The notes beneath the pieces were generated by a model. The model was not told the DNA's origin. It worked only from the letters and a program-made list of their open reading frames with translations, and searched no databases. This document shows, piece by piece, positions 14,909-59,283 of a DNA stretch of 64,000 bases; the stretch's first letter is position 1; each line of letters starts with the position of its first letter. Origin of the DNA: Candidatus Omnitrophota bacterium (GTDB lineage Bacteria > Omnitrophota > Gorgyraeia > 2-01-FULL-45-10); assembly GCA_030695905.1 (NCBI GenBank), contig JAUYOL010000043.1, forward strand, positions 128,998 to 192,997. Direction: 5' to 3'. A program made the translations under genes and the position numbers.

Positions 14909-14957
14909 AAGCTCTCTCGAGCACCTATACAGTTCAATGTGTCAAAGAATAAATTAG

Positions 14958-28938: not shown

Positions 28939-28955
28939 GCAATTACTTGAAGAAC

Positions 28956-29031
28956 TGGAGCTAGCAGAGGGGATCGAACCCCCGACCTATGGTTTACAAA
29001 ACCATTGCTCTACCAGCTGAGCTATGCTAGC
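28956..29031 (-). tRNA. tRNA-Thr (anticodon UGU)
   Basis: Reverse complement reads GCTAGCATAGCTCAGCTGGTAGAGCAATGGTTTTGTAAACCAT...GGTTCGATCCCCTCTGCTAGCTCCA. Confidence 0.85.
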
Positions 29032-42201: not shown

Positions 42202-42202
42202 T

Positions 42203-43000
42203 TTATATCAGCCTCCCTTCGCGGAACGCTTTTATGTATTCGGCGCAGTATTCATCCTCACAAAGTAATGCCTTTGAAACAACTATGGAAGACATGATAT
42301 ATTTTTCCGTAGGGTCAAGTATGGCCGCGTCCAATCCCGCCTGCATAGCCATGGATAAAAATACTGAATTGATCAATTTTCTGTTCGGCAGTCCGAACGA
42401 TACGTTCGACAATCCGCATACGGTTTTCGCTCCGAGAGATTTTATCATCGGTATCGACCTCAAGAATTCTTTCACTTGTTCAGGCTCTGTCGATATGGGG
42501 CGGATCAACGGATCGAAATAAATATTTTCCGGCTTAAAACCTTTTGCGCAGACCTTCACCAGCATATCTTTGGCAATATTAAACCTGTCCTCTGCGCTAT
42601 GTGGCATACCCTCTCCGCCCATAGTAAGGGCTATGAGCTTCGTATTATATTTAACCGCCAGCGGAACTATATGCTCCATCCTTGAGTCCTCGCCTGTAAT
42701 TGAATTAATAAATGTTTCGCCGCCTGCTTTATATATTTTGAGAGCGCTTTCAATGGCGATGTGGCTGGGACTATCGATACAGATATTGACATCTTTTATT
42801 TCGCTCTGGATTACGCTTATCATCCAATCGATATCCTGGATCTCGTCTCCGAGGCTCATCGCGCAATTGATATCCAAAAATTTTGCGCCTGCTTCGATCT
42901 GCTTCTTCGCTTCTTTTAATATGAAAGCTGCATCCTTATTCTTCATCGCTTCCTGAATATGCGCTCTCGTAGAATTTATACGCTCACCGATTATCAACAT
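42203..43000 (-). CDS. acsE: Methyltetrahydrofolate:corrinoid/iron-sulfur protein methyltransferase AcsE (pterin-binding)
   Basis: 265-aa pterin-binding barrel (IIGERIN...DINCA...GLSNVSFG), in the acs cluster. Confidence 0.8.
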   Translation of the reverse strand: MLIIGERINSTRAHIQEAMKNKDAAFILKEAKKQIEAGAKFLDINCAMSLGDEIQDIDWMISVIQSEIKDVNICIDSPSHIAIESALKIYKAGGETFINSITGEDSRMEHIVPLAVKYNTKLIALTMGGEGMPHSAEDRFNIAKDMLVKVCAKGFKPENIYFDPLIRPISTEPEQVKEFLRSIPMIKSLGAKTVCGLSNVSFGLPNRKLINSVFLSMAMQAGLDAAILDPTEKYIMSSIVVSKALLCEDEYCAEYIKAFREGRLI

Positions 43001-43014
43001 TCTATTACTACCTC

Positions 43015-43941
43015 CTAAACTATACCGTAAGCCGCTTCTATCGTTTTAATAAGCGCGGTCAACACTTCATTAACAGGCGTCGGTATGCCTAATGCCTTCC
43101 CCTGCCGCATGATCGCGCCATTTATAAAATCTATTTCGGTGCGTTTATTATTAAGGACATCCTGCAGCATGCTTGAGACATTAGCGGCCGTCGCCTTGCA
43201 TACCGATTCGACCTTCTGGATAGGATCGTCGTAGGCCAGCTTTATCCTTTTTCTTTTTACTATCTTCACGGCTTCCTGCACGGCGCTTCTTAGAATTTCC
43301 CTTGTACCGCTGTGCTCTGTAAGCATCCCATTTTTTAGACGTGTTATGCCTGTCAGGGCATTTATTCCCACATTTATAACGAGCTTACTCCACACCACAG
43401 AATCTATGTCCTTAGATACTTTTGTCTCCAGGCCGGCTTTTGACAAGATACCCGCGATCTCTTTAATCGGCCCCAATACCTTACCGTTAGAAATCCCTAT
43501 AATGGTATCGCCCTTACCCGCATGCCGGACATGGCCGGTGCCAAGTAAAGTCACACCGTGATTTGTAATACCGGCAATAACTCTATCCGAACCAAAATAA
43601 TCGTTTAACACCTGGACATTACCAATGCCGTTTTGTAAAGTCAGGACAAATGTTTCTTTCGAGACAAGATCCTTAATGTCTTTGCACGCGTCCTCGGTAG
43701 AATAACTCTTAACGCAGAGTATAACGAGGCCGCACGGTCCGACCTCTTTAGGATCCGCCGAAATATTTACCTGCGCCTGAATGGAACCGCTCAAGCCTTC
43801 TATCTTTATCCCATCGGCTCTTATGCGCTTGGCGCGCTCGGGAGATCTGTCAATAAGCCATATCTCCTCCTTGGTCCTTGCCTTCAATAATACGGCTATA
43901 AGACAGCCGAGGGCTCCGGGGCCTACGACCGCTACCTTCAT
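43015..43941 (-). CDS. panE: 2-dehydropantoate 2-reductase (PanE/ApbA family)
   Basis: N-terminal Rossmann VAVVGPGALG and the ApbA C-terminal domain (EIDFINGAI). Confidence 0.75.
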   Translation of the reverse strand: MKVAVVGPGALGCLIAVLLKARTKEEIWLIDRSPERAKRIRADGIKIEGLSGSIQAQVNISADPKEVGPCGLVILCVKSYSTEDACKDIKDLVSKETFVLTLQNGIGNVQVLNDYFGSDRVIAGITNHGVTLLGTGHVRHAGKGDTIIGISNGKVLGPIKEIAGILSKAGLETKVSKDIDSVVWSKLVINVGINALTGITRLKNGMLTEHSGTREILRSAVQEAVKIVKRKRIKLAYDDPIQKVESVCKATAANVSSMLQDVLNNKRTEIDFINGAIMRQGKALGIPTPVNEVLTALIKTIEAAYGIV

Positions 43942-44813
43942 TATTTCTTCCTCATCTTTCTTATCTCTTCGTCTTTTATCGTAAAACAGTGCGCGGCATC
44001 CGGAAACAGCCCTTTCTCGACCTCGTCTTTATATTTCTTTACGCCGTCCGTTATAAGCGAGGAGAGCTTCACATATTGCTTTACAAATTTTGGGACAAAT
44101 CTGTCGAATAGCCCGACCATATCATAAGTTACAAGCACCTGGCCGTCACAATGCGGGCCGGCACCGCAACTTATCGTCGGTATCGACACTTTGCTTGTAA
44201 TCAATTTAGCTACTTTATCGGGGATGCATTCGAGTACTACGCCGAAGCATCCGGCACGTTCCAATTTTATCGCCTGCTCCAATATTTTATACGCGCCGTC
44301 AGCGTCTTTACCCTGAACTTTAAAACCGCCCAACTTCGACGCGGTCTGAGGGGTAAGCCCAAGATGGCCCAATACGGGAATGCCAGCGCTGACTATCGCC
44401 ATCGTTACATCCAGCGCGTCATTTCCGCCTTCGAGCTTCACGGCGTCGCAACCGGCCTCCTTCATGAAACGGCCCGCGTTGCGCACCGCTTCTTCATTCG
44501 AGATCTGGTACGACATAAACGGCATATCGCCTATTAAAAACGCGTATTTCGTGCCGCGCCTCACCGCTTTCGCGTGATGTATCATCTCATCCATGGTTAC
44601 AGGCACAGTTGATTCGTATCCGAGCACCACCATGCCCAACGAATCGCCGACCAGTATTGAATCTATGCCCGCGTCATCAATTATCCTCGCCATAGGATAG
44701 TCATATGCCGTAAGCATAGTAATCTTTTTCCCTTCGTGCTTCTTATTCTGCAGATCTATTATCGTTACCTTTTTCCTATCCATATTCTCTCCTTTATTTC
44801 TTCCTATACGCAT
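43941..44813 (-). CDS. panB: 3-methyl-2-oxobutanoate hydroxymethyltransferase (ketopantoate hydroxymethyltransferase)
   Basis: ITMLTAYDYP...ILVGDSLGMV canonical PanB motifs. Confidence 0.9.
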   Translation of the reverse strand: MRIGRNKGENMDRKKVTIIDLQNKKHEGKKITMLTAYDYPMARIIDDAGIDSILVGDSLGMVVLGYESTVPVTMDEMIHHAKAVRRGTKYAFLIGDMPFMSYQISNEEAVRNAGRFMKEAGCDAVKLEGGNDALDVTMAIVSAGIPVLGHLGLTPQTASKLGGFKVQGKDADGAYKILEQAIKLERAGCFGVVLECIPDKVAKLITSKVSIPTISCGAGPHCDGQVLVTYDMVGLFDRFVPKFVKQYVKLSSLITDGVKKYKDEVEKGLFPDAAHCFTIKDEEIRKMRKK

Positions 44814-45582
44814 CCAAGAACGAGTCGCAGTAAATATTTTTATTCAATACAAGTTCCGCTGTGATCACGGCGTCCATAAGATCCTTGTCGAGCGGATCCA
44901 ATATCGCCGAAGTCAGGCCATTCGCTATAGCCATCGTGACAAATGTCCGGTTTATCAGGGGCCTGAATTTTGTGCCTTGTGACACGTTAGATAAGCCCAC
45001 TGTCGTCTGCGGCGCGGGATCGCATAGCATCCTGAATTCACGAAGCGACTCGAGAACCTCCCTGCCTTGAGTCTGCGCGACATTTACCGGCAGTACTATG
45101 GGGTCGATATATAGATCCTCGGTATTGATGCCATATTCTATGGCCTTCGCCACTATCGTCGCAGCTAACTCCAGCCTCTTGTCCTTTGAATTCGGCACTC
45201 CGGACTTATCCATGGCAAGCCCTATCACCTGCGCATTATACCTCTTTGCAAGGTCAAAGATCTTCGCCATCTTATCTTCATCCGCGCTTGTAGAATTTAT
45301 AATGGCTCTCTTCTTTACCAGCTTCAAGCCCTCTTCTATAACATCCGCTTTCGTCGAGTCAAGCGCGAGCGACACATCGGTAACAGCCTGGATGGATTCG
45401 ACCAGCCACTTCATATCATCTTTAGGATTTTTTGAATAAGGCCCTGCATTGACATCTAAAACGGACGCGCCCGAATTGACCTGGTCGACAGCCAGATGCT
45501 GTATTATATCCGCCTCCTTATTTACGATAGCCTTGCCGACATCCTTATACATTCCATTTATCAACTCGCCTATTATTATCAC
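44794..45582 (-). CDS. Second methyl-THF:corrinoid methyltransferase paralog (AcsE/MtrH-like pterin-binding protein)
   Basis: 262 aa (IIGELIN...DVNAG...GLSNVSQG); paralogous to the acsE at 42203-43000. Confidence 0.75.
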   Translation of the reverse strand: MIIIGELINGMYKDVGKAIVNKEADIIQHLAVDQVNSGASVLDVNAGPYSKNPKDDMKWLVESIQAVTDVSLALDSTKADVIEEGLKLVKKRAIINSTSADEDKMAKIFDLAKRYNAQVIGLAMDKSGVPNSKDKRLELAATIVAKAIEYGINTEDLYIDPIVLPVNVAQTQGREVLESLREFRMLCDPAPQTTVGLSNVSQGTKFRPLINRTFVTMAIANGLTSAILDPLDKDLMDAVITAELVLNKNIYCDSFLDAYRKK

Positions 45583-45595: not shown

Positions 45596-46516
45596 TTATC
45601 TCTTCATCATGGTTTCAACATATCCGGTAATTTCTCTGGAGCTATCGGGATGCCTGACTACTAAAATGTCGGCTCCTGCCTGCAGCATCGATATCGACGT
45701 TGCTATCTCCCAATTTACGCCCTGCACCATCGAATCCTTCGCTTCCTTGACCTTCCAAACCTCCTGACCCGCAAATAAGATAAACGGCATCGAGAGCATC
45801 TTGTCGCCTATAAACGCGGCGAGCCGGGCCCGCTCCATTATCGAATAAACGTATTCCATGCCATAACCTAAAGATGTAGTAGTTGGATGCATCACTATCT
45901 TTTTAGGGTCGAAGCCCATATCGCTTACCAGTATATTTACCTGCTTCGCGATATTAATATCTATTGGCGATTCCGCTATAAGAGAGTGTCCGTCGGCAAG
46001 ACAGGTCGCGGTAAGCGTCTTGTAATTTTCCTGGCTGGCGACTCCGAAAAGGCTGTTCGTCCCTTTAAGCGCATTACTCGCTTTAGGCAGAAGGTCATTA
46101 TCTTTATCATCGTCCCCAGACCCCACTACTATTAACGGCACTTTTACCTCTTTGGCGATCTGTTTTAAAATAGAGACCGAATGATCCGAGCTTTTATTGC
46201 CCCAATCAGGGTGAACACTCTGCAGCCTCACACACAATAACTTCGCACCGAACTTTTCCACCGCGGTCTTCGCCCATCTTACAGGGTCTTTTATATCCGC
46301 GCCGAAAGCGTCTTTAAGAGGCTGCGGCCATTCCACCGGTTCGCAATCCATCACTTCGATAGCCGTTATGGGCGCGTTGGGCATCTGGCCTTCTTCAAAT
46401 AAGAAAGGAAGCATCGTCTCACCGCCGATTTTTACCGTCGAACCGGATTGCGGGCCACCTATCTCAACAATATTTATCGCGTTATTATACTTTTCTTTTA
46501 CTAATTCCACGGCCAT
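45596..46516 (-). CDS. acsD: Corrinoid iron-sulfur protein small subunit AcsD (CdhD homolog)
   Basis: 306-aa TIM barrel of the CFeSP delta subunit, adjacent to acsC and acsE. Confidence 0.8.
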   Translation of the reverse strand: MAVELVKEKYNNAINIVEIGGPQSGSTVKIGGETMLPFLFEEGQMPNAPITAIEVMDCEPVEWPQPLKDAFGADIKDPVRWAKTAVEKFGAKLLCVRLQSVHPDWGNKSSDHSVSILKQIAKEVKVPLIVVGSGDDDKDNDLLPKASNALKGTNSLFGVASQENYKTLTATCLADGHSLIAESPIDINIAKQVNILVSDMGFDPKKIVMHPTTTSLGYGMEYVYSIMERARLAAFIGDKMLSMPFILFAGQEVWKVKEAKDSMVQGVNWEIATSISMLQAGADILVVRHPDSSREITGYVETMMKR

Positions 46517-46517: not shown

Positions 46518-47268
46518 TTATTTCTCCATTAATTTTGTGAATATCTCTTTTATCCTGTCCTTAATATCGGCATCTTCAAATTCAAATATCGGCTTATTCG
46601 ATATGCTCCACTTGTCGACATTCTCGTCAAAAGGTATCGTTCCGATAAAATTCGCGCCGACAGCGCGTATTTCGGCCTGAAGCGGCTCCAAAAATCCGGT
46701 TACCTTATTTATTATAAACGCGCTCGACCCCATCCTTATGCCAAGGTCTTTTGCAAGTTCGAATATCCTTTTTGCCGAGCGTATCCCTACTATGGAATAG
46801 TCGCTGACGAGCAAAAGCCTGTCGATAACTCGCATGGTGCGGCGCGATATATGCTCCATGCCGGCCGCATTATCGATAACTACAAAATCATAATTTTTTA
46901 TCACACGCGCCATCATGTCGCGCAAAAGGTTATTAACATAGCAGTAACATCCCGGGCCTTCAGGCCTACCCATGACCAATAGGTCAAACCCCTCTTCTTC
47001 GACTAAAGCTTCCTGCACTCTCATTTCTATAAAACGCTCTTTCGTCATACCGCCGGGAATGTTGCCCATCTGCTTAGAAACTTCATCACAAATTCCGGCT
47101 ATAGTCTGGTGGCCCGCGATACCTAAAGCTTCCGGTAAAGTTGAATTAGGATCGGCGTCGATAGCCAGTATCAAGCCTTTTTTATTGGATACGAGAAAAT
47201 CCACCAAGAGCGCCGCTACGGTGGTCTTACCAGTGCCGCCTTTTCCATTAACAGCTATAACTGTACCG
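46518..47268 (-). CDS. cooC: CODH/ACS nickel-insertion accessory ATPase CooC/AcsF. The P-loop is encoded upstream of the first ATG, so the start is non-canonical or unresolved
   Basis: The track ORF starts at MVDFLV, but the in-frame upstream sequence encodes IGTVIAVNGKGGTGKTTVAALL (Walker A). It is preceded by AGGGAGG, and the only candidate start is ATC/ATA. Confidence 0.7.
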
Positions 47269-49069
47269 ATGGGAACCTCCCTAAATCAGTGTGCGGAAAA
47301 AATAATGACGCCACATATTCATCCATATAGTTATTCTCCGCGCTCAAATCTATATATGTGATGTTCTTATATATATCGTCCGTCTTCTTAAAAGCGTCCG
47401 CAGACAATAGCGACATTCTCGCGCCGGCAAGCGATGAATTCCCTATAAATTCATACCTCGACCTCTGGGCGTCGGGCAGAAGACCTATAAAGATAGAGTT
47501 TTCTATATTCAGATAATTACCGAAGCCGCCGGCAATATATATCTTTTTTATGTCCTCTAATTTTTTATCGACCTTATTAAGCAGCGATATTATAGCGCTG
47601 TATATCGCGCCTTTCGAGCGCTTAAGATTTTCTATGTCATCGTCGCTAATGATAACTTTATCCGCGACGATAAATTCATAACCTGTATCTGTCTTCCTGA
47701 TCCTTTTGGATTTCAACTCACGGTTTATTTTTCCATTTTTTCCAATAACACCTCTTTTTAACATCTGGCACAATAGGTCTATATAGCCGGAGCCGCATAT
47801 CCCCTTCGGCTTTTCATCCGCTATTGTTAAAACTTTTACATTAAGGTCTTTATCTATCTCTACTTTCTGAATCGCGCCTTTTACCGCCTTCATGCCGCTC
47901 GTCAGCCCGCTTCCTTCAAAAGCAGGACCAGCGCTCGCCGCGGCACTTATCATCCATTCGGAATTACCAAGTACAATTTCGCCGTTAGTGCCTATATCTA
48001 CGAGCAATGATATCTCGCCGCTTTCCGACAGCCCGCATGCCAGCACACCCGAGACGATATCGCCTCCCACATATGTGGTTACGCCTGGTATAAAAGATAC
48101 TATGCCTTTAGGATTTGCATCTATCCCCACTTCGGGAGAGTGTACCGTCTCAAACACAGTTGTCGTAGGTATATAAGGCGCCTTCCTTATATTTGTCGGG
48201 TCAACTTTTAGCAAAAGATGCATCATCGTCATGTTGCCCGCGCATACTATAGCGTATATATCAGCCATGTTGACATTGTGCGCCTTCGTAAGGTCTTCTA
48301 TTATTTCATTGACATTATCAAGCACCGCCTCATTAAGCACCTTTAGGCCTTCCGGATTTGAGGCGTAAATTATCCTCGTAATAATATCGGCTCCGTAGCT
48401 CGCTTGCTTATTAAACGCTATTCTTGTGCCTAAAATATTTCCTGTATTAAGGTCTATCAGCTGGCCGACAACGGTAGTCGTTCCTATGTCAAACGCAAAC
48501 CCGAAATTTACCTTCTTCGTATCGCCGGGCTCTATCGAGATTATGTCTATAGCATCGTCTTTATGTCCGATACAGGCGGTAACCTTAAAATCGCTGTCCC
48601 GCAGGACTTCGCTCAAATGTTTTAGATTTGCGAGGTTCGTCGATATGTGGACATTGTGAAACTTGTGCTCTATGTCCCTACATACTCTGTCAAGATCGCT
48701 TAAATTGTCGTCCTGTGTAGGCGCGGAAAGTTCCAGATACTCTTTTTTGACAAGCGGTGAAAAGGCAAACGCCTTTTCTCTTTCAAGCACTACGCCTTTC
48801 GTGAATTCTTCCGATTCGTGCTTGAACTTAGCGTGGACTTCGAGCGACTCTTTAGGTATCTTTACTTCGAGGTCGCTTTCCACTATAGTCTGGCAGGCAA
48901 GGACCTCTTTTTTGCCTGTTACAACCTTACACTTGCCGCAGAGGCCTTCTCCGCCGCAGGATGCATGCATCGCTATGCCGGCTTTTATGGCGGCGGTAAG
49001 CAGATCCGTACCTTGCGGAACTTTTATCGTTTTCTTCAGCGATGTAAAATTTACTGTGAACTCTTTCAT
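47255..49069 (-). CDS. Reductive activator of corrinoid Fe-S protein (RACo; 2Fe-2S ferredoxin plus ASKHA ATPase)
   Basis: N-terminal 2Fe-2S ferredoxin (CGGEGLCGKC...C) followed by an ASKHA/acetate-kinase-like ATPase domain (DIGTTT, DIGTNGE). 604 aa, in the acs cluster. Confidence 0.8.
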   Translation of the reverse strand: MKEFTVNFTSLKKTIKVPQGTDLLTAAIKAGIAMHASCGGEGLCGKCKVVTGKKEVLACQTIVESDLEVKIPKESLEVHAKFKHESEEFTKGVVLEREKAFAFSPLVKKEYLELSAPTQDDNLSDLDRVCRDIEHKFHNVHISTNLANLKHLSEVLRDSDFKVTACIGHKDDAIDIISIEPGDTKKVNFGFAFDIGTTTVVGQLIDLNTGNILGTRIAFNKQASYGADIITRIIYASNPEGLKVLNEAVLDNVNEIIEDLTKAHNVNMADIYAIVCAGNMTMMHLLLKVDPTNIRKAPYIPTTTVFETVHSPEVGIDANPKGIVSFIPGVTTYVGGDIVSGVLACGLSESGEISLLVDIGTNGEIVLGNSEWMISAAASAGPAFEGSGLTSGMKAVKGAIQKVEIDKDLNVKVLTIADEKPKGICGSGYIDLLCQMLKRGVIGKNGKINRELKSKRIRKTDTGYEFIVADKVIISDDDIENLKRSKGAIYSAIISLLNKVDKKLEDIKKIYIAGGFGNYLNIENSIFIGLLPDAQRSRYEFIGNSSLAGARMSLLSADAFKKTDDIYKNITYIDLSAENNYMDEYVASLFFPHTDLGRFPSVQL

Positions 49070-50404
49070 CTATTTTAGGTTTCTCAAATAATTCGGTAAC
49101 CCGGATGCCTCACGCGGCCCCACCGATATCTTCCAGCCGGTTACCTCTTCTAATTTTCCGCTCATAACCGAAACATACCCCGGAATGATAAGGCGCTTAT
49201 GAGAGACTATCTTTTCAACTCCGGCCTTCTTCATCGTTTCATCTATTTTTTCCGGAGTAAATTTTTCGGCGGCCCACGCGGTAAGTACAGACATACCCTC
49301 CGAATCGCAGCAAAGTATATATGAAGGGACCTTGCTCGACTCAACTTCGCCCGCGACAGTAAAGTACGTTATGGAGAAATTGGTGGTTATAAGGACAGGT
49401 GAAGAAGGGCTGACTTTACCTATCTCGTAAATTTTGGGCTCTACCTGCACCGGTTTCTGCGGATCAGAGTAAATATCCTGGCGCGCGACCAAAAGCGGCA
49501 GAACAAACTCTTTATCCGTATTTTTTATTATCACAAGTCCGGCGTATTTAGCTACATATGAAATCGCCTCGGCCAATTCCGCATGGGGCTTGGCTTCAGA
49601 GGTAAGTGCCATCAAAGGATACCCAAGCGGCCTGAAATTTTTCTTTAATGCCGCTCTTCTTATAAATGTAAAGTTCTGTATCAGGCCGCCTTGAGCTTTG
49701 CCCTTTAGGCTTATCACAATCTCTTCGACTCCGCCCTGCTTTACCTTATCCGCGATGCTCGCCGCTTCATCAATATCTTTGCATGTAATGGCAAGCGGCG
49801 TCTTGTATTCTTTAGCTAAAGCTATGAAGGCATCTATATTGCCGGAGCCGTCCCAGATTATAAGAGGCCTCCTATCCTTACATATCTTCAACGCTTCCGC
49901 CATGGCATCGGCGCTGCCGCTATAAAGCGCTATATTTAATCCTGTCGAACCCGCTACTTTACTGACAAGTCCAATAAACGCGTCTTTACTGCCGGATGTA
50001 TTCTTCAGGCAAACAAGACTTACGGATATATTCTGTCCGGCACGCTCAAATGACAAAGCGTTTATAGCAGAAACTTTCTTAGAAATCTCTTCGTCATTTA
50101 ACGAATCTTCTATGAGTATACCGATGCCTGTGGGATGGAAAAATTTCTGCTCATGCCTATACATAACGGTCTCATTGCCCATCTCCAGCTTCTTATCGCC
50201 GGTGCCTACCGTGACGAGCTTTATAGGCGGCTGGCTGGCGCTCTCTAACGCTGACTTCGCCTGCGCGGTAACATGGGGGCACTTATCGAGCGACACCTTC
50301 TTCTGGGCAAGCGCCATCGCAAAGGCAAGACACGTAGCGAAACCGCATTCCTTGCAGTTTGTCTTCGGGAGTAACTTATAAATATCTAATCCTGTTAACG
50401 CCAT
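49070..50404 (-). CDS. acsC: Corrinoid iron-sulfur protein large subunit AcsC (CdhE homolog)
   Basis: N-terminal 4Fe-4S binding CKECGFATC...C followed by a TIM barrel and a B12-binding domain. Confidence 0.85.
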   Translation of the reverse strand: MALTGLDIYKLLPKTNCKECGFATCLAFAMALAQKKVSLDKCPHVTAQAKSALESASQPPIKLVTVGTGDKKLEMGNETVMYRHEQKFFHPTGIGILIEDSLNDEEISKKVSAINALSFERAGQNISVSLVCLKNTSGSKDAFIGLVSKVAGSTGLNIALYSGSADAMAEALKICKDRRPLIIWDGSGNIDAFIALAKEYKTPLAITCKDIDEAASIADKVKQGGVEEIVISLKGKAQGGLIQNFTFIRRAALKKNFRPLGYPLMALTSEAKPHAELAEAISYVAKYAGLVIIKNTDKEFVLPLLVARQDIYSDPQKPVQVEPKIYEIGKVSPSSPVLITTNFSITYFTVAGEVESSKVPSYILCCDSEGMSVLTAWAAEKFTPEKIDETMKKAGVEKIVSHKRLIIPGYVSVMSGKLEEVTGWKISVGPREASGLPNYLRNLK

Positions 50405-50417
50405 TTTAATCCCTTTC

Positions 50418-51614
50418 TTACATTCTTAATATGAATTTTTCCCAGCTGCCTATTAAATTACCTGTTATAGTATCGTAAAATACCGTATTCCTGACATAAA
50501 AGCTGTAGAAGATGTAGAAATCCAAACACACTATCAATAAAATCGGGGCGCTGACTATTAATGCCCTTTTAGCTTTTGATTTTGACGCCAAGCCATATAC
50601 CGTGATGGCCGTAAATACCCTTATCGGAAAATCGAGCGCTATCACATACCGCGCATTCTTTATGTATAAGCTGTTCGCGAGATAATATACTATGAAAAAT
50701 AGCACCAGATATGAGCATGGCTCCGTCCAGAGGTTCTTATCTCTAAAATACCAGATAAAGAATGCCGCCGCGGCGATAACTGTAAGCGGCGATATGAGAA
50801 AAAAATCCAGCCCGTAGCGCGTTATTGGACCCGTTAAATACATTCTGGCCCATTTGTTGGTCAATGGCGACGTTATTATGATTTCAATAAGCCTTGCCAG
50901 ATTGGCTAAACTTCCCGTAACGATAAGCCATGACATAACAACAGCCGCTAAGGATAAAATAAGATATACCAATAATGAAAATCTTCTCTTCCAGAAAATA
51001 ACAATGAGAAAGAACGGCACGATCAGCAGATTCGACTCTTTTACCATAATTGCCGAGAATAGCGACAACGCAAACGCTATCCTTAACGCTATATTATCTT
51101 TCTTAAGCGCTTCGTAAAAGATCCATAACGTCAATATGATGAAGAAATACAGCATGCTTTCAGGCTGCGCCCTTCTTGAAAAAGCAAGATTCATAGGAGA
51201 GAAAGCAAGCAATGAAAGACTGATCAGCGCTATCTTTTCATCAAAGAGCCTTTTTGTAAAAAAATATCCGACAAAAAGCGACATAATACTGAAAAACGCC
51301 GACATATAAGAAAGAGCCTGGTAATTAAACTGCGCTATAAGCCGCATCCAATAACTGGCGATAACAATATAACCTGCCCGTAATGGGCTTGGGAATATAT
51401 GAAAAAAATCGCCGTTAATATAATCTACCACCAGCGCCTGTATAGACGCATCCTTAGCTACCGCCATATAGGACGCGTATTTCAGGTAAAACTTTTCGTC
51501 CGGCACAGAGCCTGAATAGTCTATGTCTTTCAGAAACGCTATTCTTAAAAATATCCCTACCGCAAAAACAAGGATTACAAGCAGGATAAAATATTTTCTC
51601 GACCCTTGTTCCAT
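50418..51614 (-). CDS. GT-C fold membrane glycosyltransferase (family 39/PMT_2, ArnT-like), embedded between acsB and acsC
   Basis: 398 aa with at least 10 TM segments and the periplasmic-loop DE motif (SVPDEKFYLKY) typical of ArnT/PMT-type GT-C enzymes. Confidence 0.6.
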   Translation of the reverse strand: MEQGSRKYFILLVILVFAVGIFLRIAFLKDIDYSGSVPDEKFYLKYASYMAVAKDASIQALVVDYINGDFFHIFPSPLRAGYIVIASYWMRLIAQFNYQALSYMSAFFSIMSLFVGYFFTKRLFDEKIALISLSLLAFSPMNLAFSRRAQPESMLYFFIILTLWIFYEALKKDNIALRIAFALSLFSAIMVKESNLLIVPFFLIVIFWKRRFSLLVYLILSLAAVVMSWLIVTGSLANLARLIEIIITSPLTNKWARMYLTGPITRYGLDFFLISPLTVIAAAAFFIWYFRDKNLWTEPCSYLVLFFIVYYLANSLYIKNARYVIALDFPIRVFTAITVYGLASKSKAKRALIVSAPILLIVCLDFYIFYSFYVRNTVFYDTITGNLIGSWEKFILRM

Positions 51615-51627
51615 GAGCCTTGTCCTT

Positions 51628-53805
51628 TTACATCATTGAAGGCATTGTAAGAGCAGGGTGCCCGACTTTTTCCATGAACTGTACAAGATTTACCACATCG
51701 GTCGCCACGGTCTCATCGGCGATCTTGTTTAAAAAGTCGGGGTCGCCTATCTCTTCGCAACGTTTCTTTAATTTATCGCCTAATGCTTCCTTTAATTCCT
51801 TAGGCATCCATACGATACGCTTTAACCCGCCTTCGGCTAAAATAAATTTTTTACTGGTTATATACAAACGTCCTACCCCTAAAAATCCGGGCGTTTGATT
51901 TCCCCCGCCTACGGAGCTTGCCAGCGTAGTAAACTTCATCCCTGCCGGTGTTTCGCCGGCGTATTCTCTATTCACAATCATTACACCGTTAGCTTCCGGC
52001 ACTATTGCCACTATGCACTCAAAGCATCCGCATGATGTCATTGGTGATTCCATGATCGAATATGTGGACATCTGGCTTACATGCTGGTGGGACGCATTGT
52101 GAACAAAAGTGTTTATTCCTTCCCAGATACCTTTTACAGCATCAATAGCGTTACCCTTCTTTATAGGCTGATTACCACCCGTCGGCGTGATTTCGTGCGC
52201 TGCCTTGGCATCGAGCCATGAGTAGGCGCCGCAAAGTCCGAGCCTCTCAGGGCTCACGACGCAGATATGATCAGGCGCAAAGCTTTGACAAAGCGCGCAG
52301 CTATAGAAGGTATCTACTGATTCATCAGTCATGCCCGCAAGACGCGCGTCGCGCGCTTCATAGGTTTTGCGAGCTTCAGGCAAAATATTATTTACCCCTT
52401 TTTCATCCGTAATAAGTTTAACCTGAACTTTGTCTATAATCGCTCCATATTCGTCATGGAATTTTGTAATCAGCAGATCGCCGAAATGGCGGATCTTAAA
52501 TCCTGCATTCTTGGCGTCCTTGGAGATCCTTACCCAGTTCATGTCACGCTGGCCCATATGAAATATGCCCATCGCGTAATTCAGGAACTTATGTATTTGA
52601 CGCTCCAGTATGGGTTCAAAATCCTGTATCATCTTACGTCCGGCTACTTCTATCAGTATACCGAGGGGCGCAGACGATCCCTCCGCCATTTTATCGATCT
52701 CAGGCCCTATAACCTCTATGCGGCCATTCTCTATCTCTTCAGGCTTTCCCATCTTCAAATACTCAAAGGCCGGCGAGTATTTACCGCCGAACTGAACGAA
52801 CATATTCTCTTTTCTGACGCGCTCGCCCTCAAAGGCCGCTGAACACGGGACAGGTATCGGCACTTTTGTAACTTTTATCTTGATCCCCCTTACCTCGATG
52901 CAGCGCTGCACTATTTTCTTGTGATCCAGTTCTTTCACCAAAGCCTCATACGTCGTAATACCGGATGGTTTTATCTCAGGTATATCTGTATCAGCTATGA
53001 TCGGAAAGCCCATGTTTATAGCGCCGGCGCCCGTAGCATATTTTATGTCGTCAAGCTCACCAAGAACGAGGCCGAACGCGAATACTCTCTCTTTCGTGTA
53101 CATGAGGCATTTCGACGCGTCTCCGGACTTAATTCCACCAAATGTCAACGCCGCCCTTATCGCCCAGTTGAGGGCGTAGATACCGGATATGGTATCTCTG
53201 CCGTAAGGAACGATATAATTTTCCCAGCCCATCTGTATCTTCTCTTCTATCAGTTGGTCTATGATGGAACGCCCCTTGACCGATGAGCCGACAAATATCA
53301 ATATGCTTCTTTCCTGGAGCTGCCGGATTATATCGACGGCTGTTTTATTGTCCGGCGCCGCGCCCAGAACCGCCGCGAAACCGGCCATTCGGCCGTCGAC
53401 CAATTGTATCCCAAGCGTGCGCAGGATCGTATCCGAAAAGAAGCCATTACAATCTTTTTGAGGCTCCTTGTTATATAAATAGCGTAATGCGACGATAATC
53501 TCTTCATTAAACAACGTTGCCATGCCGGCATTAAGCGCATCACCCAAATAAGGCAGCCACACTTTCTCCGAAGGCATTTCAGGAAGAAGAGACTTGGCGT
53601 GTTCGAGTATCGGCACCATATCCTTCAACGTCTCAACCTTCGCGCCTAAAAGGGCATTCGCCATAGGCAGATAAAATGCTGTATCCGGGAAATTGACCTT
53701 CTCGGATGTCCCCTTCTCCTTTATCGCTTTATCTAAAAATTCGGACGCCTGTTTATATATCTCACGAGCACCGCGAATTACAGATTCTGCAACAACTTTA
53801 GACAT
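51628..53805 (-). CDS. acsB: Acetyl-CoA synthase (CODH/ACS alpha subunit) AcsB
   Basis: 725 aa with the A-cluster Cys-Gly-Cys motif (SCGCFECIV) and ACS signature sequences. Confidence 0.9.
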   Translation of the reverse strand: MSKVVAESVIRGAREIYKQASEFLDKAIKEKGTSEKVNFPDTAFYLPMANALLGAKVETLKDMVPILEHAKSLLPEMPSEKVWLPYLGDALNAGMATLFNEEIIVALRYLYNKEPQKDCNGFFSDTILRTLGIQLVDGRMAGFAAVLGAAPDNKTAVDIIRQLQERSILIFVGSSVKGRSIIDQLIEEKIQMGWENYIVPYGRDTISGIYALNWAIRAALTFGGIKSGDASKCLMYTKERVFAFGLVLGELDDIKYATGAGAINMGFPIIADTDIPEIKPSGITTYEALVKELDHKKIVQRCIEVRGIKIKVTKVPIPVPCSAAFEGERVRKENMFVQFGGKYSPAFEYLKMGKPEEIENGRIEVIGPEIDKMAEGSSAPLGILIEVAGRKMIQDFEPILERQIHKFLNYAMGIFHMGQRDMNWVRISKDAKNAGFKIRHFGDLLITKFHDEYGAIIDKVQVKLITDEKGVNNILPEARKTYEARDARLAGMTDESVDTFYSCALCQSFAPDHICVVSPERLGLCGAYSWLDAKAAHEITPTGGNQPIKKGNAIDAVKGIWEGINTFVHNASHQHVSQMSTYSIMESPMTSCGCFECIVAIVPEANGVMIVNREYAGETPAGMKFTTLASSVGGGNQTPGFLGVGRLYITSKKFILAEGGLKRIVWMPKELKEALGDKLKKRCEEIGDPDFLNKIADETVATDVVNLVQFMEKVGHPALTMPSMM

Positions 53806-55066
53806 ACATATTCTCCTTATCTTTACCTTTAATATGTTCTATAATATCAGGATAGCCGAAGCTCTCCTCTGTCAGTCTATCCCTGAACGGTACAATGTCT
53901 ATCCCGTCTTTTATTAATCTTAAAAATATACCGCCATTAGCCACCTTTCCAGCCAGTACTACCCCAACCAGGCGGTTATTTTTAATAACAAATTTTTTAT
54001 ACGTCCCGGCTTTTGCATTCTTTAATTTTATCTCTTCGAACCCCTGTCCATCCTTTACCTTAAATATTCCAAAAGACATCGTCGGCAACCCGAAAAACTC
54101 CAGAGAATTCATCCCAAGCGAACCTTCATATTTAACCTTTTCTCCCGCCATATTCGCGCCTGCAACTCTTCCCTGCCATACGGCAATAGGCCAGAGCGCG
54201 TTCACACACCCCGCCTTCAGAGTAATATCATAAGCCTCGCATACATCTCCAGCCGCATAGATATTGGGAACTGCTGTGCGCAACGTGTTATCTGCTATTA
54301 TACCTTCGTTCACTTTAATGTCTGTTCCGCTTACCATATCAATATTAGGCGCAACTCCTTTACTGACTATCAGTATTGAAGCCTCTATTGTCTTGCCGGA
54401 ATCTAACTTTAACGCCTTAATATTGTCTTCACCAACTACCTCAGCCACATCGTGGCCGAAGATAAGTTCGACACCGTTTGATTCCAGCTTATTCTGGACA
54501 AGCTGGGCAGCCTCCCGGTCGAGCACCTGCGATAAAACCTGCCCGGATTTGACTATGACCTTTACTTTGAGGCCTCTCTTCTTCAAGGCATAAGCAGCCT
54601 TCAGCCCGACCAGGCCCCCGCCGGAAATACAGGCTGGCTTGCTCGCCGCGACAAGCGTATTAAGTTCTTTAGCATCCCGGATCGTCCTGAATCCATAAAC
54701 GCCTTTTTTGTCTATGCCTTTTATCTCCGGCATCTTGGGCGAAGAGCCTGTAGCAATAAGGAGGCTGTCGAATTCATGTTTCGTCTTGTCCTCAAAGTAG
54801 ACCGCGTTCTTCTTCGGTTCAACGCGCGTGATCTTTTTATTCAGGATTAGTTCAATATTATTCTCTTTATAAAAACTGTCTGCCCTGTATAATATTTCTT
54901 TCTCCTTAATGTCCCCGGCGAGATAGTACGAAATGAGACAGCGACAATAAGACGGGTAATCTTCATCCGAAATCATAGCTATCCGTGACTCTTTATCTTT
55001 CTTACGGATAGCTTCCGCCGCCGATATGCCCGCTGCTGAATTCCCTATAATAATATAGCGCTTCAT
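53798..55066 (-). CDS. FAD/NAD(P)-dependent pyridine nucleotide-disulfide oxidoreductase (CooS/CooF-associated)
   Basis: GxGxxG Rossmann folds (IIGNSAAG, GGGLVG) in the cooS-cooF-oxidoreductase arrangement common in acetogens. Confidence 0.7.
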   Translation of the reverse strand: MKRYIIIGNSAAGISAAEAIRKKDKESRIAMISDEDYPSYCRCLISYYLAGDIKEKEILYRADSFYKENNIELILNKKITRVEPKKNAVYFEDKTKHEFDSLLIATGSSPKMPEIKGIDKKGVYGFRTIRDAKELNTLVAASKPACISGGGLVGLKAAYALKKRGLKVKVIVKSGQVLSQVLDREAAQLVQNKLESNGVELIFGHDVAEVVGEDNIKALKLDSGKTIEASILIVSKGVAPNIDMVSGTDIKVNEGIIADNTLRTAVPNIYAAGDVCEAYDITLKAGCVNALWPIAVWQGRVAGANMAGEKVKYEGSLGMNSLEFFGLPTMSFGIFKVKDGQGFEEIKLKNAKAGTYKKFVIKNNRLVGVVLAGKVANGGIFLRLIKDGIDIVPFRDRLTEESFGYPDIIEHIKGKDKENMYV

Positions 55067-55506
55067 TTAAACACCTCTTCCTGCCATATAACTGCGCCTG
55101 TAGGGCATGCTTTTACACAAGCCGGTTCGTCTTTATCGGCACATTTATCGCAGCGCACCGGCATCTTCTTTTTTAAATTGGGGCGGACAGCGCCGTATGG
55201 GCATACCATGACGCACATCCAGCAGCCGACACAGCGCTTCTCATCGTGCAGGACCATCCCCTTCGTCTTATCAAAGATAAGCGCTGAGGCCATGCAGGCG
55301 TCAACACATTTTGCGTCCTTGCAATGCCTGCATGAAACAGGATAATTTTTCCCGCGCGAACATAGCACTTTTTTTCGCGGCAGAGAGGGCATCTCTTCTT
55401 TTATTGCCTTAAAGAGATCCCCGCTCGCTGAATGAGCCACCGCGCAGGCAATCTCGCAGGACTTGCACCCTAAACATTTTTTTACTCCATAATATAACGT
55501 CTTCAC
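55063..55506 (-). CDS. cooF: 4Fe-4S ferredoxin-type electron transfer protein CooF
   Basis: Multiple CxxCxxCxxxCP clusters (CLGCKSCEIAC..., CVGCWMCVMVCP). Confidence 0.85.
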   Translation of the reverse strand: MKTLYYGVKKCLGCKSCEIACAVAHSASGDLFKAIKEEMPSLPRKKVLCSRGKNYPVSCRHCKDAKCVDACMASALIFDKTKGMVLHDEKRCVGCWMCVMVCPYGAVRPNLKKKMPVRCDKCADKDEPACVKACPTGAVIWQEEVFK

Positions 55507-57446
55507 TTTTGGTACATCCAGGGTTTAAGATTAAGCGCTTTACGCTTCTTGTCTATGTGAGCTATCATCAGGTCGGCCATCTTTATTGGGTCATCGCAGA
55601 ACTCAAACCTTCCTCCGACGGCACTCTCAATACCCTTCGTCAGATACTCCGTCAGATTAGCGCTTCCCAGAGTGGCAAAAGGAAGTGAGCCAAATACGGT
55701 GTATACTCCCGAGGCGACAAAATAAAAACCGATCGTTATCGCTTTCTCTGACATCCATTCGGGCGCGCAGCCTGCGGCCGGTATATCCGACAAATCCTGG
55801 CCCAGTCCGCCTTCCTCTATAATATGAGACGCGGCTGTCAGTATACGTGAATTATCGACACATGCGCCCATGTGCAGTACCGGCGGTATGCCGACCGCCT
55901 CGCATATCTCCTGCAATCCCTTGCCGGCATAAGTCTTGGCCGCTTCCGGCACCAGCAACCCCTGTTTCGCGCAGGCTATCGCGGCGCATCCGGTCTGAAG
56001 TACCAGCACATCGTTCTTTATTAATTCCTTCACAAGCGTCGTATGATAATAATCGTGAGTCTGCTTCGGGTTGTTGCATCCTACCACGCCGGCCAATCCC
56101 CTAAGGCGTCCGGATATGATAGCCTCATTCAAAGGCTTATATGTTGAACGATATTTGCCTCCCAATATCTGGAAAACTATCTCTTTCGTAAAACCTGCCA
56201 CCAGATCCATCTCGTGTTTTGGGATGTTGACCCTTCCCTTATTTCTATTGGAAAAATTTTCCACGCCTATCCTTACTATCTGCTTGGCCACATCATAAGC
56301 ATTGTCAGGGGTAAATTCTATATGTTGTACGCCGGGGAAACGGGCCTTCGTGCTTGTCGTAATGAGTTTCGTATGAAAACAACTCGCTACCTCATGGAGG
56401 GCCGGCATTATACATTGGACATCTACCATCATAACTTCCACCGCGCCGGTTATTATGGCCAACTCCTGCTGAAGAAAATTACCCGCGACCGGAATACCGT
56501 TACGCATCAGGACTTCGTTAGCGCTGCAGCAGATACCGGCAAGATTGATACCTTCGGCGCCTTTTACCTTAGCAAGCTTTACCAATTCAGGATCTTTGCA
56601 GGCCTTGACCGCCATATCCGACAGGACTGGTTCATGGCCATGCACTACGATGTTGACAAAACCTTCCCTCAGAACTCCGAGATTCACTTTTCCCCTTACA
56701 GGCATCGGACTGCCAAGAATGGCATCCTGAACTTCGGTCGCGATCATCGATCCGCCCCAACCGTCCGAAAGCGCACATCGCATACCGTTTTTTATCATAT
56801 TCTTATAATCGTTGTCCACGCCCATAGTTGTGGTATGTAAAAGCTCTACGACTTCCCTGTCTATACCGCGCGGTGTAATGCCAAGATCCTTCCATATCTT
56901 CTGCCGTTTTTTAGGGGCCCTTTTGCAAAATACCAGTTCGCCATCCTGTTTCCCGAACTCTTCGAGGAGTTTTTTGGAAAGTTCTCTGGTAATATCGGAT
57001 ATCGGCTTTGAGCTGTCGATGCCAAATTCTTCCGCAAGCTTCTTAAATTTATCGACGTCGAGTATTTCGTAATTGTGTGTATGAGAATCCTTGCCATGCC
57101 CATGCTCATGCATGCGAACGTCCGAGATAAGCGATAACATATGCGCGACATCCCTGCCGTGATCGGAATGAGCGGACGCGCCAACCGCTATTTTCCTGAC
57201 AAGGTTTCTCGCCGCTATGGTATCGGCGTTTGCGCCGCACACACCGGTGTTAGCGCCCTCTCCAAACGGATCTATGCGGCACGGTCCCATGTTACAGACT
57301 GTGCAGCATGCTCCGAGTTGACCAAAACCGCATTGAGGTTGCTGTTCTCCAAGCCTATCCCAAACAGTCTCGATGCTCTCACATCTTGCCTTTTCAAGCA
57401 TCTCCTGCGTAGCTAAATCTATGGATTTTTTCTTCACATCTGACAT
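55503..57446 (-). CDS. cooS: Anaerobic carbon-monoxide dehydrogenase catalytic subunit CooS/AcsA
   Basis: 647 aa with N-terminal B/D-cluster cysteines (CGFGQLGACCTVCNMGPCRI) and C-cluster ligand regions. Confidence 0.9.
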   Translation of the reverse strand: MSDVKKKSIDLATQEMLEKARCESIETVWDRLGEQQPQCGFGQLGACCTVCNMGPCRIDPFGEGANTGVCGANADTIAARNLVRKIAVGASAHSDHGRDVAHMLSLISDVRMHEHGHGKDSHTHNYEILDVDKFKKLAEEFGIDSSKPISDITRELSKKLLEEFGKQDGELVFCKRAPKKRQKIWKDLGITPRGIDREVVELLHTTTMGVDNDYKNMIKNGMRCALSDGWGGSMIATEVQDAILGSPMPVRGKVNLGVLREGFVNIVVHGHEPVLSDMAVKACKDPELVKLAKVKGAEGINLAGICCSANEVLMRNGIPVAGNFLQQELAIITGAVEVMMVDVQCIMPALHEVASCFHTKLITTSTKARFPGVQHIEFTPDNAYDVAKQIVRIGVENFSNRNKGRVNIPKHEMDLVAGFTKEIVFQILGGKYRSTYKPLNEAIISGRLRGLAGVVGCNNPKQTHDYYHTTLVKELIKNDVLVLQTGCAAIACAKQGLLVPEAAKTYAGKGLQEICEAVGIPPVLHMGACVDNSRILTAASHIIEEGGLGQDLSDIPAAGCAPEWMSEKAITIGFYFVASGVYTVFGSLPFATLGSANLTEYLTKGIESAVGGRFEFCDDPIKMADLMIAHIDKKRKALNLKPWMYQK

Positions 57447-57460
57447 TTATTTTCTCTCCT

Positions 57461-58327
57461 TTACAATCCCGCTGTCTCTAAAACAAGCGGGACCTTCTTA
57501 TCCCAGCCTATCGGCATGATATGTATGCCCTGACACAACGGCTTAAGCTCTCTAATAAGCCGCGCAGCTATCTCTATCGATTTTGCACTCTTATCTTTCG
57601 TCTCTTCCATCTCTTTAATAAGATTGTCGGGCACGAAGACTCCCGCGACATTCTTATTCATATATCTTGCCATTCCCGCGGATTTCAGCAATACTATGCC
57701 GCCCAATATCTTTGTCTTTAAATGCCGCGTGGCGTCCAAGAATCTTTTGAATAACTCCATATCGTAGATAGCCTGCGTCTGGAAAAATAGCGCGCCGGAT
57801 TCTATCTTTTTCTCCATCTTTATGATTTCCGGCTCGAGCGGATCCGCGCCCGGGTTTACTACCGCGCCTACACAGAATTTTGGCGCCCCCTTTAACGCGT
57901 TGCCTTTCATGTCCTTGCCTTCCTGCAAAAGTTTTATCGCGTCCAGAAGCTCAATAGAGCCTAAATCAAATACAGGCTTAGCCTCGGGATGATCGCCGAG
58001 CGTCGGATAATCCCCCGTAAGGGCAAGCACATTTTCTATGCCGAGTATGGCGGCGGATAATAGATCGGACTGTAACGCAAGCCTGTTCCTGTCACGGCAT
58101 GTCATCTGCAATATAGGCTCGATGCCCCTATCCTTTAAAAGATGGCACACCGCAAGCGAACCGACCCTTAATACGGAACTTTGCAGGTCCGTAACATTTA
58201 TTGCGTCGACCTTGCCCTTTATAAGATCCGCATCTTCGAGCATCTCTTTGATATCGGTCCCTTTTGGGGGACCTATCTCGCTTGTAACTAAAAATTTGCC
58301 GGCTTTAATCTTATCGCAGAATGTCAT
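57461..58327 (-). CDS. metF: Methylenetetrahydrofolate reductase MetF (acetogen-type)
   Basis: 288-aa TIM barrel of the MTHFR family. Confidence 0.8.
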   Translation of the reverse strand: MTFCDKIKAGKFLVTSEIGPPKGTDIKEMLEDADLIKGKVDAINVTDLQSSVLRVGSLAVCHLLKDRGIEPILQMTCRDRNRLALQSDLLSAAILGIENVLALTGDYPTLGDHPEAKPVFDLGSIELLDAIKLLQEGKDMKGNALKGAPKFCVGAVVNPGADPLEPEIIKMEKKIESGALFFQTQAIYDMELFKRFLDATRHLKTKILGGIVLLKSAGMARYMNKNVAGVFVPDNLIKEMEETKDKSAKSIEIAARLIRELKPLCQGIHIMPIGWDKKVPLVLETAGL

Positions 58328-58401
58328 CCCGTATTCCTATCCCACCGCCGCGGTGGGAATGTAGCTAACTACACGACACCGCGGCGGTGCAATTCATGAG
58401 T

Positions 58402-59283
58402 TTAAAACATAAAACTATTCTTAAACAATTCAACAGTATTACGCATAAGTATAGTAGTTGTGATCGGCCCTACACCGCCGGGAACAGGCGTGATGAAAGA
58501 CGCTTTTGCTGAAGCGGCCTCAAACTCCACATCGCCGACTATCTTGTCCGCTACTCTATTTATCCCTACGTCTACAACAATAGCGCCTTCTTTTATCCAA
58601 TCACCTTTTATTATACCTGCCCTGCCTACCGCAACGACCAGCACCTCGGCTCTTTTTACATGATCGGCAAGCACGCCTCTTTCGCCGGTGGCTATGTGAC
58701 AAACTGTCGTCGTCGCGAATTTATTTAGTAGCATCATGGCAAGCGGTTTGCCCACAATCTCTGAGTGGCCGACTATAACCGCCTCTTTCCCGTATAGATT
58801 TACTTTTGATGATTCCAATAATTCCATTACAGCCATGGCCGTACACGGGCCTATCCTGTACTGGCCCAGCAATATTTTCCCGAGGTTTTCCGGATGCATG
58901 CCCTCGGCATCTTTTGCGGGCGATATAAGATTAACTATCCTTTTTGCGTCTATACCCTTTGGCACCGGAAGCTGTAATATTATCGCCGATACGGCCGAAT
59001 TACTATTTAACTCTTTAACAATATCTTCCGCTTCGGCCTGTGTAATCGTCGCTGGTAAGACTTTAAGTTCATACTCTATTCCAAGATTTTCCGCCGCCTT
59101 CTTCTGCGCTTTGACATACACGGCGCTCGACGCGTTATCTCCCATCTGCAAAGCAACCAGCTTAGGCGTCTTGCCGCTTTTAGCTTTAAGCGCTTCGACA
59201 TCTGATTTTATCGACGTTCTAAGTCCTTCCGCTATTACTTTACCCTCTAAAAGTGCCGCACTCACCTGATTACCTCCTCGCAT
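58402..59283 (-). CDS. folD: Bifunctional methylene-THF dehydrogenase / methenyl-THF cyclohydrolase
   Basis: 293 aa with FolD motifs (YxxK, PGGVGPIT). Confidence 0.9.
   Translation of the reverse strand: MRGGNQVSAALLEGKVIAEGLRTSIKSDVEALKAKSGKTPKLVALQMGDNASSAVYVKAQKKAAENLGIEYELKVLPATITQAEAEDIVKELNSNSAVSAIILQLPVPKGIDAKRIVNLISPAKDAEGMHPENLGKILLGQYRIGPCTAMAVMELLESSKVNLYGKEAVIVGHSEIVGKPLAMMLLNKFATTTVCHIATGERGVLADHVKRAEVLVVAVGRAGIIKGDWIKEGAIVVDVGINRVADKIVGDVEFEAASAKASFITPVPGGVGPITTTILMRNTVELFKNSFMF

Follow-up and report, generated by a model that had tools for sequence, protein, structure and literature searches.

Why should a gene for a membrane glycosyltransferase lie between acsB, which encodes the acetyl-CoA synthase subunit, and acsC, which encodes the large subunit of the corrinoid iron-sulfur protein? 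The question is raised by a 64,000-nucleotide stretch of contig JAUYOL010000043.1 from a Candidatus Omnitrophota bacterium (positions 128,998 to 192,997; hereafter the window), in which a 398-residue open reading frame stands inside the acs core of a Wood-Ljungdahl gene cluster. Its sequence and predicted structure indicate that the product is a true GT-C enzyme in which only the membrane core is left, with roughly a dozen helices and no soluble domain. We consider it reasonably probable that this is a functional envelope glycosyltransferase whose gene is an old passenger of the operon, lodged in an insertion-prone acsB/acsC junction and presumably without a role in the Wood-Ljungdahl pathway. 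This reading draws on the fold and family of the protein, the conservation of its motifs, a conserved but patchy synteny, purifying selection, host-like codon usage and the permissiveness of the junction.

An extra gene with its own translation start

The open reading frame is far from a chance one, because its product passes the gathering score of the Pfam family PMT_2, has full-length homologs and yields a confident all-helical membrane model. Reading the sequence bore out what a preliminary description of this DNA had reported: a 398-residue frame at 50418–51614 that carries the motif VPDEKFY and is separated by 13 nt from acsB on one side and from acsC on the other. It was rightly regarded as an extra gene inside the acs core, where the usual state is for acsC to come straight after acsB, as it does in about 40 of the 46 acs loci having acsC downstream. 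The preliminary description also supposed that the gene would be co-translated with the acetyl-CoA synthase genes. However, the junction upstream of the glycosyltransferase gene reads TAA-AAGGACAAGGCTC-ATG and the junction upstream of acsC reads TAA-GAAAGGGATTAAA-ATG, both with a purine-rich ribosome-binding tract. A Shine-Dalgarno-like tract of its own at each junction implies co-transcription with independent translation starts rather than co-translation. Around the glycosyltransferase gene there was no excess of promoter-like or terminator-like sites over shuffled sequence.

A GT-C fold without soluble domains

In a Pfam scan, PMT_2 (PF13231) was matched over residues 86–228 at 40.0 bits, well above its gathering cut-off of 26.1. 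The PMT family (PF02366), whose model aligns over residues 22–225, was borderline, at 22.3 bits just below its cut-off of 22.7. No other Pfam family was matched, there was no TPR match, and no MIR domain was found even at E ≤ 10. The Agl23 model of NCBIfam (TIGR03663) was far sub-threshold at 13.4 bits against a cut-off of 126.25. The PDB gave no sequence match, whether it was searched with the protein alone, with a 14-member profile or with a 73-member profile.

An AlphaFold2 model, built on 14 sequences (pLDDT 89.2, pTM 0.90), was helical from residue 2 to residue 397. In this model the first transmembrane helix (TM1) spans residues 2–26, and the next helix starts at residue 38, opened by D39-E40. 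When the model was compared with the PDB by Foldseek, all 26 matches at E ≤ 0.001 were GT-C glycosyltransferases (TM-score 0.52–0.65 on the query), a set of STT3, AglB, PglB, ArnT, Pmt4, ALG9/ALG12 and EmbA/B. In the PMT, ArnT and PglB structures the catalytic acidic residues occupy this place after TM1, and the loop with D39-E40 presumably faces outward. A simple hydropathy scan for topology proved too crude, merging TM2 and TM3 into a "loop", and was not used.

Searching 1.84 billion cluster representatives with HMMER returned 892 relatives at E ≤ 1e-3, 46 of them at E ≤ 1e-30; most were about 400 residues long and aligned end to end. In an alignment of 73 relatives, with a mean identity of about 25%, five residues were invariant (D39, P77, E193, G262 and R322) and a further set was conserved in at least 90% of sequences (E40, Y43, P75, R79, S139, P140, R147, D270, K319, R332 and Y380-D381-P382). 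The DE motif named in the preliminary description is conserved across this alignment. PMT_2 was matched by 73/73 relatives and PF02366 by 23/73 at E ≤ 0.001. TPR repeats were fused to the enzyme in 9/73, which, if TMTC enzymes are a guide, is a hint that some members of the family may act on proteins.

These results place the protein in the PMT_2/GT-C superfamily, outside GT39 and GT83 proper. They uphold part of the earlier classification as an ArnT/PMT-like enzyme of GT-C family 39, namely that the protein is polytopic, belongs to the GT-C superfamily and conserves a DE motif in its first external loop. Strict membership of GT39 or ArnT fell away, given the borderline PF02366 score, the absence of a MIR domain and of a periplasmic C-terminal domain, and the absence of an arn context among the window genes scanned with Pfam. 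Family membership further suggests a polyprenyl-phosphate sugar donor, the likely acceptor and an outward-facing active site.

A conserved but patchy position

We found the same position occupied in other acs clusters. A homolog with 43% identity to the window protein (P0007) lies between acsB and acsC in an Omnitrophota metagenome-assembled genome (MAG; GCA_043808115.1, locus L001), in the order fhs-fchA-folD-metF-acsB-X-acsC-RACo-...-acsD-acsE-panB-panE, where X is P0007. Another (P0008, also 43%) occupies the same slot on two contigs, L004 and L005. A third (P0001, 56%, locus L086) comes directly after an acsB C-terminus with 82% identity to that of the window, and a fourth (P0002, 58%) clusters with P0001. 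Overall, four or five of about eleven members at ≥40% identity are embedded in acs genes.

When we searched by acsB instead, a homolog was found within 7 kb of acsB in 0/80 species-representative acs loci, sister lineages included. The best acsB matches of the window were Omnitrophota MAGs at 72–75% identity. Three states occur together in the window's own subclade of the acsB tree: carriers (the window, L001 and L004), direct acsB-acsC junctions (L017, L056, L042, L053, L029, L063 and L033) and loci with a different insert (L038 and L060). This subclade includes the isolate fen_1320 (L033) and a contig with accession CAIMPC01... (L056); the latter is the sister of L001/L004 and is without insert. 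Whether related acs clusters carry the same insertion, a question raised in the preliminary description, thus has a divided answer: at least four other contigs do (L001, L004, L005 and L086), and none of the 80 species-representative loci does. Judged from these sequences, the glycosyltransferase does not appear to be a regular component of the acs core. A pattern scan of 185,579 species-representative genomes, based on a glycosyltransferase alignment, gave 269 matches, none of them a true relative, and a scan of JGI metagenome contigs gave a single weak partial match (L095, 31% identity over 97 residues).

The junction also holds unrelated cargo elsewhere (Table 1), which makes it a permissive, recurrent landing site. 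The inserts include a restriction-modification-like pair, a longer group with a toxin-antitoxin fusion and, at two loci, a secreted protein whose two copies share 53% identity. We considered the secreted protein as a partner or acceptor of the glycosyltransferase and rejected it, as the window has no homolog of it.

Two further observations concern acsB itself. A large Omnitrophota acsB clade (L007–L016, L021–L025, L028, L032, L034, L037, L039 and L062; acsB at about 7001–9178), 67–72% identical to the window acsB, lacks both acsC and RACo for 7 kb to each side; in these genomes, either the acs genes are organised differently or no corrinoid protein is encoded next to acsB. At L084:7001–9682, acsB was matched in two pieces (query residues 1–592 and 567–725) about 440 nt apart, with 26 residues duplicated, which could reflect insertion or duplication within the gene, or a fault of the assembly.

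Relatives outside acs clusters

Equally close relatives (40–45% identity) lie outside acs clusters, in ordinary glycosylation or unrelated settings. P0003 has as neighbours a B12-radical SAM enzyme, a methyltransferase, TPR proteins and another PMT_2-TPR protein. P0010 comes after a TMTC_DUF1736-TPR GT-C protein, and P0011 after a GT2 and before a B12-radical SAM enzyme and methyltransferases. P0005 precedes a UbiA-type prenyltransferase, a label read from the translated sequence without a Pfam scan. The neighbourhoods of P0004, P0009 and P0012 are unrelated. Among the relatives' neighbours, the GT2 is at locus L088 and the UbiA-like prenyltransferase at L093.

In a neighbour-joining tree the acs-embedded proteins formed two subclades, each supported by 200/200 bootstraps. 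No alignment column was fixed in the acs-embedded copies and absent from the other members, so nothing at the level of the sequence suggests a changed job in the embedded copies.

Age of the insertion

The glycosyltransferase gene has the lowest overall GC content (0.396) of the 51 window genes. The deficit is held in the first codon positions (GC1 0.382), a consequence of the amino-acid composition of a membrane protein rich in Phe, Ile, Leu and Tyr. At third positions GC was 0.465, against 0.492 ± 0.039 in the other window genes, and the fit of its synonymous codons to the rest of the window was +0.004, against −0.002 ± 0.026. For the L001/L004 pair, the ratio of nonsynonymous to synonymous substitution rates (dN/dS) was 0.16 for the glycosyltransferase, 0.08 for acsB and 0.09 for acsC; the value of 0.16 indicates purifying selection while in the embedded position. 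The amino-acid divergence of the glycosyltransferase relative to that of acsB was 1.9 between the window and L001 and 1.5 between L001 and L004, a similarity at both depths that is compatible with co-divergence with acsB. No direct or inverted repeats bracket the gene and no homolog was found in phage or plasmid collections, and we therefore reject the idea of a mobile element.

The preliminary description had linked recent insertion to two signs, absence from related clusters and atypical composition. The gene is indeed absent from most related clusters, sister lineages included, but its synonymous codon usage is that of the host. Divergent orthologs, held by purifying selection, fill the same slot in at least four further contigs. 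Together with the host-like usage they point to an old, maintained insertion rather than a recent one.

Interpreting the operon position

We favour an old passenger with a function of its own because none of the 80 species-representative loci carries the gene, the junction holds other cargo, close relatives lie in glycosylation contexts and no residue sets the acs-embedded copies apart. Judged by the GT-C enzymes of solved structure, the protein would draw its sugar from a polyprenyl-phosphate carrier at the outer side of the cytoplasmic membrane, bind its substrates through D39-E40 of the first external loop and the conserved basic residues R79, R147, K319, R322 and R332, and pass the sugar to an envelope acceptor, which might be a protein Ser/Thr or a glycolipid or glycan. 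Its gene would have entered, long ago, a junction that tolerates foreign genes, and would since have been co-transcribed with the Wood-Ljungdahl operon by read-through from the acs promoter and translated from its own ribosome-binding site. Selection on this envelope function would have kept the gene in a few Omnitrophota lineages, with loss, or no gain at all, in most. The enzyme would be neither a catalytic nor a structural part of the acetyl-CoA synthase machinery.

Several points weigh against this explanation. Exactly the same slot is occupied in two deeply diverged subclades (43% identity), as a functional link would also give. These subclades join in the protein tree at 58/200 bootstraps only, so that a single old insertion with several losses, as opposed to repeated insertion, is not proven. 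Only about 14 close homologs were available, most of them on short contigs. Finally, no partner for donor synthesis (GT2 or flippase) and no TPR partner was present among the window genes scanned.

If position does reflect function, the membrane protein might hold or arrange acetyl-CoA synthase and the corrinoid protein at the membrane, or attach sugars to an envelope component required specifically in acetogenic or autotrophic growth, and the position itself would be under selection. We regard such a coupling to the Wood-Ljungdahl pathway as unlikely. The identical acsB/acsC position in two divergent subclades is what it predicts, and the tight spacing with a ribosome-binding site for each gene, the purifying selection and the share of acs-embedded members would all suit it; in the end, the argument comes down to conserved position. 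Yet the 80 loci without the gene include sister lineages of the carriers, the embedded copies have no residues of their own, and their conserved residues, putatively catalytic, are shared with relatives from ordinary glycosylation contexts. Obviously unrelated cargo at the same junction elsewhere, and a literature search that turned up no membrane partner of acetyl-CoA synthase, speak against it as well; we know of no such partner. The more specific proposal, that a GT-C protein was recruited into the acs operon of some acetogenic Omnitrophota as a membrane dock for the acetyl-CoA synthase/corrinoid-protein complex, or for envelope glycosylation in stoichiometric step with Wood-Ljungdahl expression, seems to us quite doubtful. 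Of the three roles offered in the preliminary description, we found nothing in support of a membrane anchor or of autotrophy-linked glycosylation. The third, a selfish insertion kept by operon context, came closest in its second half, but what the gene shows is the behaviour of a working host gene, not that of a selfish element.

The passenger story also has a possible variant, in which the window/P0001 and P0007/P0008 lineages captured the gene separately at an acsB/acsC hotspot and the shared position is convergent. The weak joint monophyly of the acs-embedded proteins, their patchy distribution on the acsB tree and the demonstrated use of the junction by other genes would fit. We nevertheless hold this variant to be improbable: the two subclades do group in the best neighbour-joining tree, the divergence ratios to acsB are similar at both depths (1.9 and 1.5), as co-divergence predicts, two arrivals of one rare subfamily at a single site would be coincidental, and there are no mobile-element signatures. 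A recent horizontal or selfish insertion, without host function and possibly decaying, is very improbable and in our view essentially refuted by codon usage, selection and the diverged same-site orthologs. It would explain the lowest overall GC content of the window and the absence of the gene from most related clusters. However, the deficit sits in GC1 while GC3 and synonymous usage are host-like, the frame is intact with its putative catalytic residues conserved, dN/dS is 0.16, same-site orthologs have diverged to 43% identity, and plasmid or phage homologs and terminal repeats are lacking.

If the gene is indeed a passenger, its value is mainly cautionary and descriptive. In streamlined genomes with genes on a single strand, such as those of Omnitrophota, core metabolic operons can then harbour genes of unrelated function over long spans of evolution, and the acsB/acsC junction emerges as a recurrent landing site for restriction-modification, toxin-antitoxin and envelope-protein genes. 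The work also delimits an uncharacterised "core-only" PMT_2 family of about 400 residues with a sharp invariant set (D39, E193, R322 and others), whose small size suits it to structural and biochemical work on a minimal GT-C catalytic unit. The cellular organisation of acetyl-CoA synthase is touched only if the less likely coupling holds; were recruitment true, the protein would be the first membrane-bound accessory factor of a bacterial acs system. Nothing relevant to a glycosyltransferase or membrane protein within acs clusters, or within the Wood-Ljungdahl loci of Omnitrophota, came out of a full-text literature search, and the main text of the main Omnitrophota genomics paper (PMC10066038) contains no word starting with "glycosyl". 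The acsB-glycosyltransferase-acsC arrangement is probably unreported.

Genomic setting

A full Wood-Ljungdahl cluster surrounds the open reading frame, with fchA and folD frames between fhs and metF (Table 1). All real protein-coding genes of the window lie on the minus strand with short gaps, and adjacency alone therefore carries little functional weight in this genome. The plus strand (1–64000) holds only a tRNA-Gly (27674–27747), and the GC skew is negative throughout.

Table 1. Positions of the glycosyltransferase gene, its junctions and neighbours in the window, and of inserts at the acsB/acsC junction of other loci.
Feature	Position	Strand	Evidence
Minimal GT-C (PMT_2-type) membrane glycosyltransferase gene, 398 residues, ATG start	50418–51614	-	Open reading frame, PMT_2 score, AlphaFold2 model, Foldseek, homologs
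VPDEKFY codons (residues 37–43), putative catalytic D39-E40, start of first external-loop helix	51486–51506	-	Translation, conservation in 73 relatives, model
acsB/glycosyltransferase junction, 13 nt, ribosome-binding-site-like AAGGA	51615–51627	-	Sequence read
Glycosyltransferase/acsC junction, 13 nt, ribosome-binding-site-like GAAAGGG	50405–50417	-	Sequence read
acsB, acetyl-CoA synthase subunit, upstream neighbour	51628–53805	-	Pfam CODH_A_N, CdhC, ACS_CODH_B_C
acsC, large subunit of corrinoid iron-sulfur protein, downstream neighbour	49070–50404	-	Pfam FeS, CdhD
RACo, downstream acs core	47255–49069	-	Pfam
CooC-like ATPase, downstream acs core	46518–47207	-	Pfam
acsD, downstream acs core	45596–46516	-	Pfam
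acsE, downstream acs core	44794–45582	-	Pfam
Upstream Wood-Ljungdahl genes: FAD/NAD oxidoreductase, 4Fe-4S protein, CooS/AcsA, metF, fhs	within 53798–61522	-	Pfam
folD, labelled by length and order match to Pfam-annotated L001 genes	58402–59283	-	Synteny only
fchA, labelled by length and order match to Pfam-annotated L001 genes	59262–59900	-	Synteny only
Junction insert: N6_N4 DNA methylase and unknown partner gene, restriction-modification-like pair	L045:9306–11092		
Junction insert: methylase, AAA_15/AAA_21 ATPase, MNT-HepT toxin-antitoxin fusion	L058:9409–14341		
Junction insert: Diphthami_syn_2 PP-loop ATPase, DMT_6 membrane protein, 337-residue signal-peptide protein of no known family	L038:3888–6092		
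Junction insert: homolog of the L038 secreted protein	L060:8735–9871		

In the window, cooS and genes for a 4Fe-4S protein and a FAD/NAD oxidoreductase separate metF from acsB (53798–57446, minus strand); metF comes directly before acsB in the carriers L001 (6866–9968) and L004 (1900–4975). CooS-containing and CooS-lacking acs cluster types have been described for Omnitrophota (PMC10066038). With cooS in the window and none between metF and acsB in L001/L004, the glycosyltransferase insert thus occurs in both types. Directly after acsE lie panB, panE, a second pterin-binding protein and an AAA_26-DRTGG protein (window 40436–44813, minus strand; also L001:16957–20645), and the genes for pantothenate, a CoA precursor, appear to be a stable addition to the acs cluster of this lineage.

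Elsewhere in the window, a cobalamin riboswitch (Rfam RF00174, 61.9 bits; 14699–14943, minus strand) stands at the head of a 14-kb cluster for cobalamin biosynthesis and cobalt transport (248–14447, minus strand) in the order radical SAM gene, CobC, CobU, CobT, CobS, aminotransferase, CobQ, CobD, CobB, CbiX, CbiC, CbiMQ-ABC and CbiD, which shares its strand with the corrinoid-dependent acs cluster. At 15757–16458 (minus strand), a DAGK_prokar (prokaryotic diacylglycerol/undecaprenol kinase) domain is fused to a PAP2 phosphatase domain. The fusion is a candidate polyprenyl-phosphate recycling enzyme and the only gene seen in the window that might be related to the supply of a GT-C lipid carrier. 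In a gene-poor stretch, a 181-residue nucleotidyltransferase of the toxin-antitoxin-like AbiEii / DUF2204 / NTP_transf_5 type (28037–28582, minus strand) adjoins a tRNA cluster (tRNA-Tyr and tRNA-Thr, 28853–29031).

Comparison with known GT-C enzymes and acs clusters

ArnT (GT83), the undecaprenyl-phosphate-L-Ara4N:lipid A transferase, has a periplasmic C-terminal domain after its membrane core, about 540–550 residues in total, and uses an Ara4N donor made by the arn genes. The window protein shares with ArnT structures (PDB 5EZM/5F15) the GT-C fold (Foldseek E 4e-5 to 6e-5, TM-score 0.52–0.55 on the query), an acidic residue in the first periplasmic loop, the one that follows TM1, and membership of the PMT_2/PMT sequence superfamily. 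However, it has 398 residues against 537–541 in the matched ArnT chains, its helices run to residue 397 and leave no space for a periplasmic C-terminal domain, none of the scanned window genes is an arn-type neighbour (ArnA/B/C/D), and no sequence match to ArnT chains was obtained, profiles included.

Protein O-mannosyltransferases of the PMT type (GT39) have a luminal or periplasmic MIR domain in a large loop and about 700 residues in total. The window protein resembles this family (Pmt1-Pmt2, 6P25; Pmt4, 9I5K) and the TPR-bearing TMTC proteins in the DE motif of loop 1 (D39-E40) and in its fold match to Pmt4 (E 1.4e-4, TM-score 0.64). The TPR fusions among its relatives, and TPR genes adjoining several of them, recall TMTC in particular. 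Unlike these proteins, it has neither MIR nor TPR and is about half the length of a PMT. The best structural match of the membrane core was to the oligosaccharyltransferases STT3, AglB and PglB (E 2e-6, TM-score 0.65 on the query), but at a sequence identity of 11–15% and with 398 residues, too few for a periplasmic catalytic domain with WWDYG-type motifs.

The surrounding genes are those of a canonical acs cluster of the Moorella and Carboxydothermus type (acsA/cooS, acsB, acsC, RACo/orf7, cooC, acsD, acsE), a kind that has been reported for Omnitrophota (PMC10066038). None of the expected acs and methyl-branch genes is missing or out of order around the open reading frame, and L001 shows the same order; the difference is that in the window a membrane glycosyltransferase gene parts acsB from acsC.

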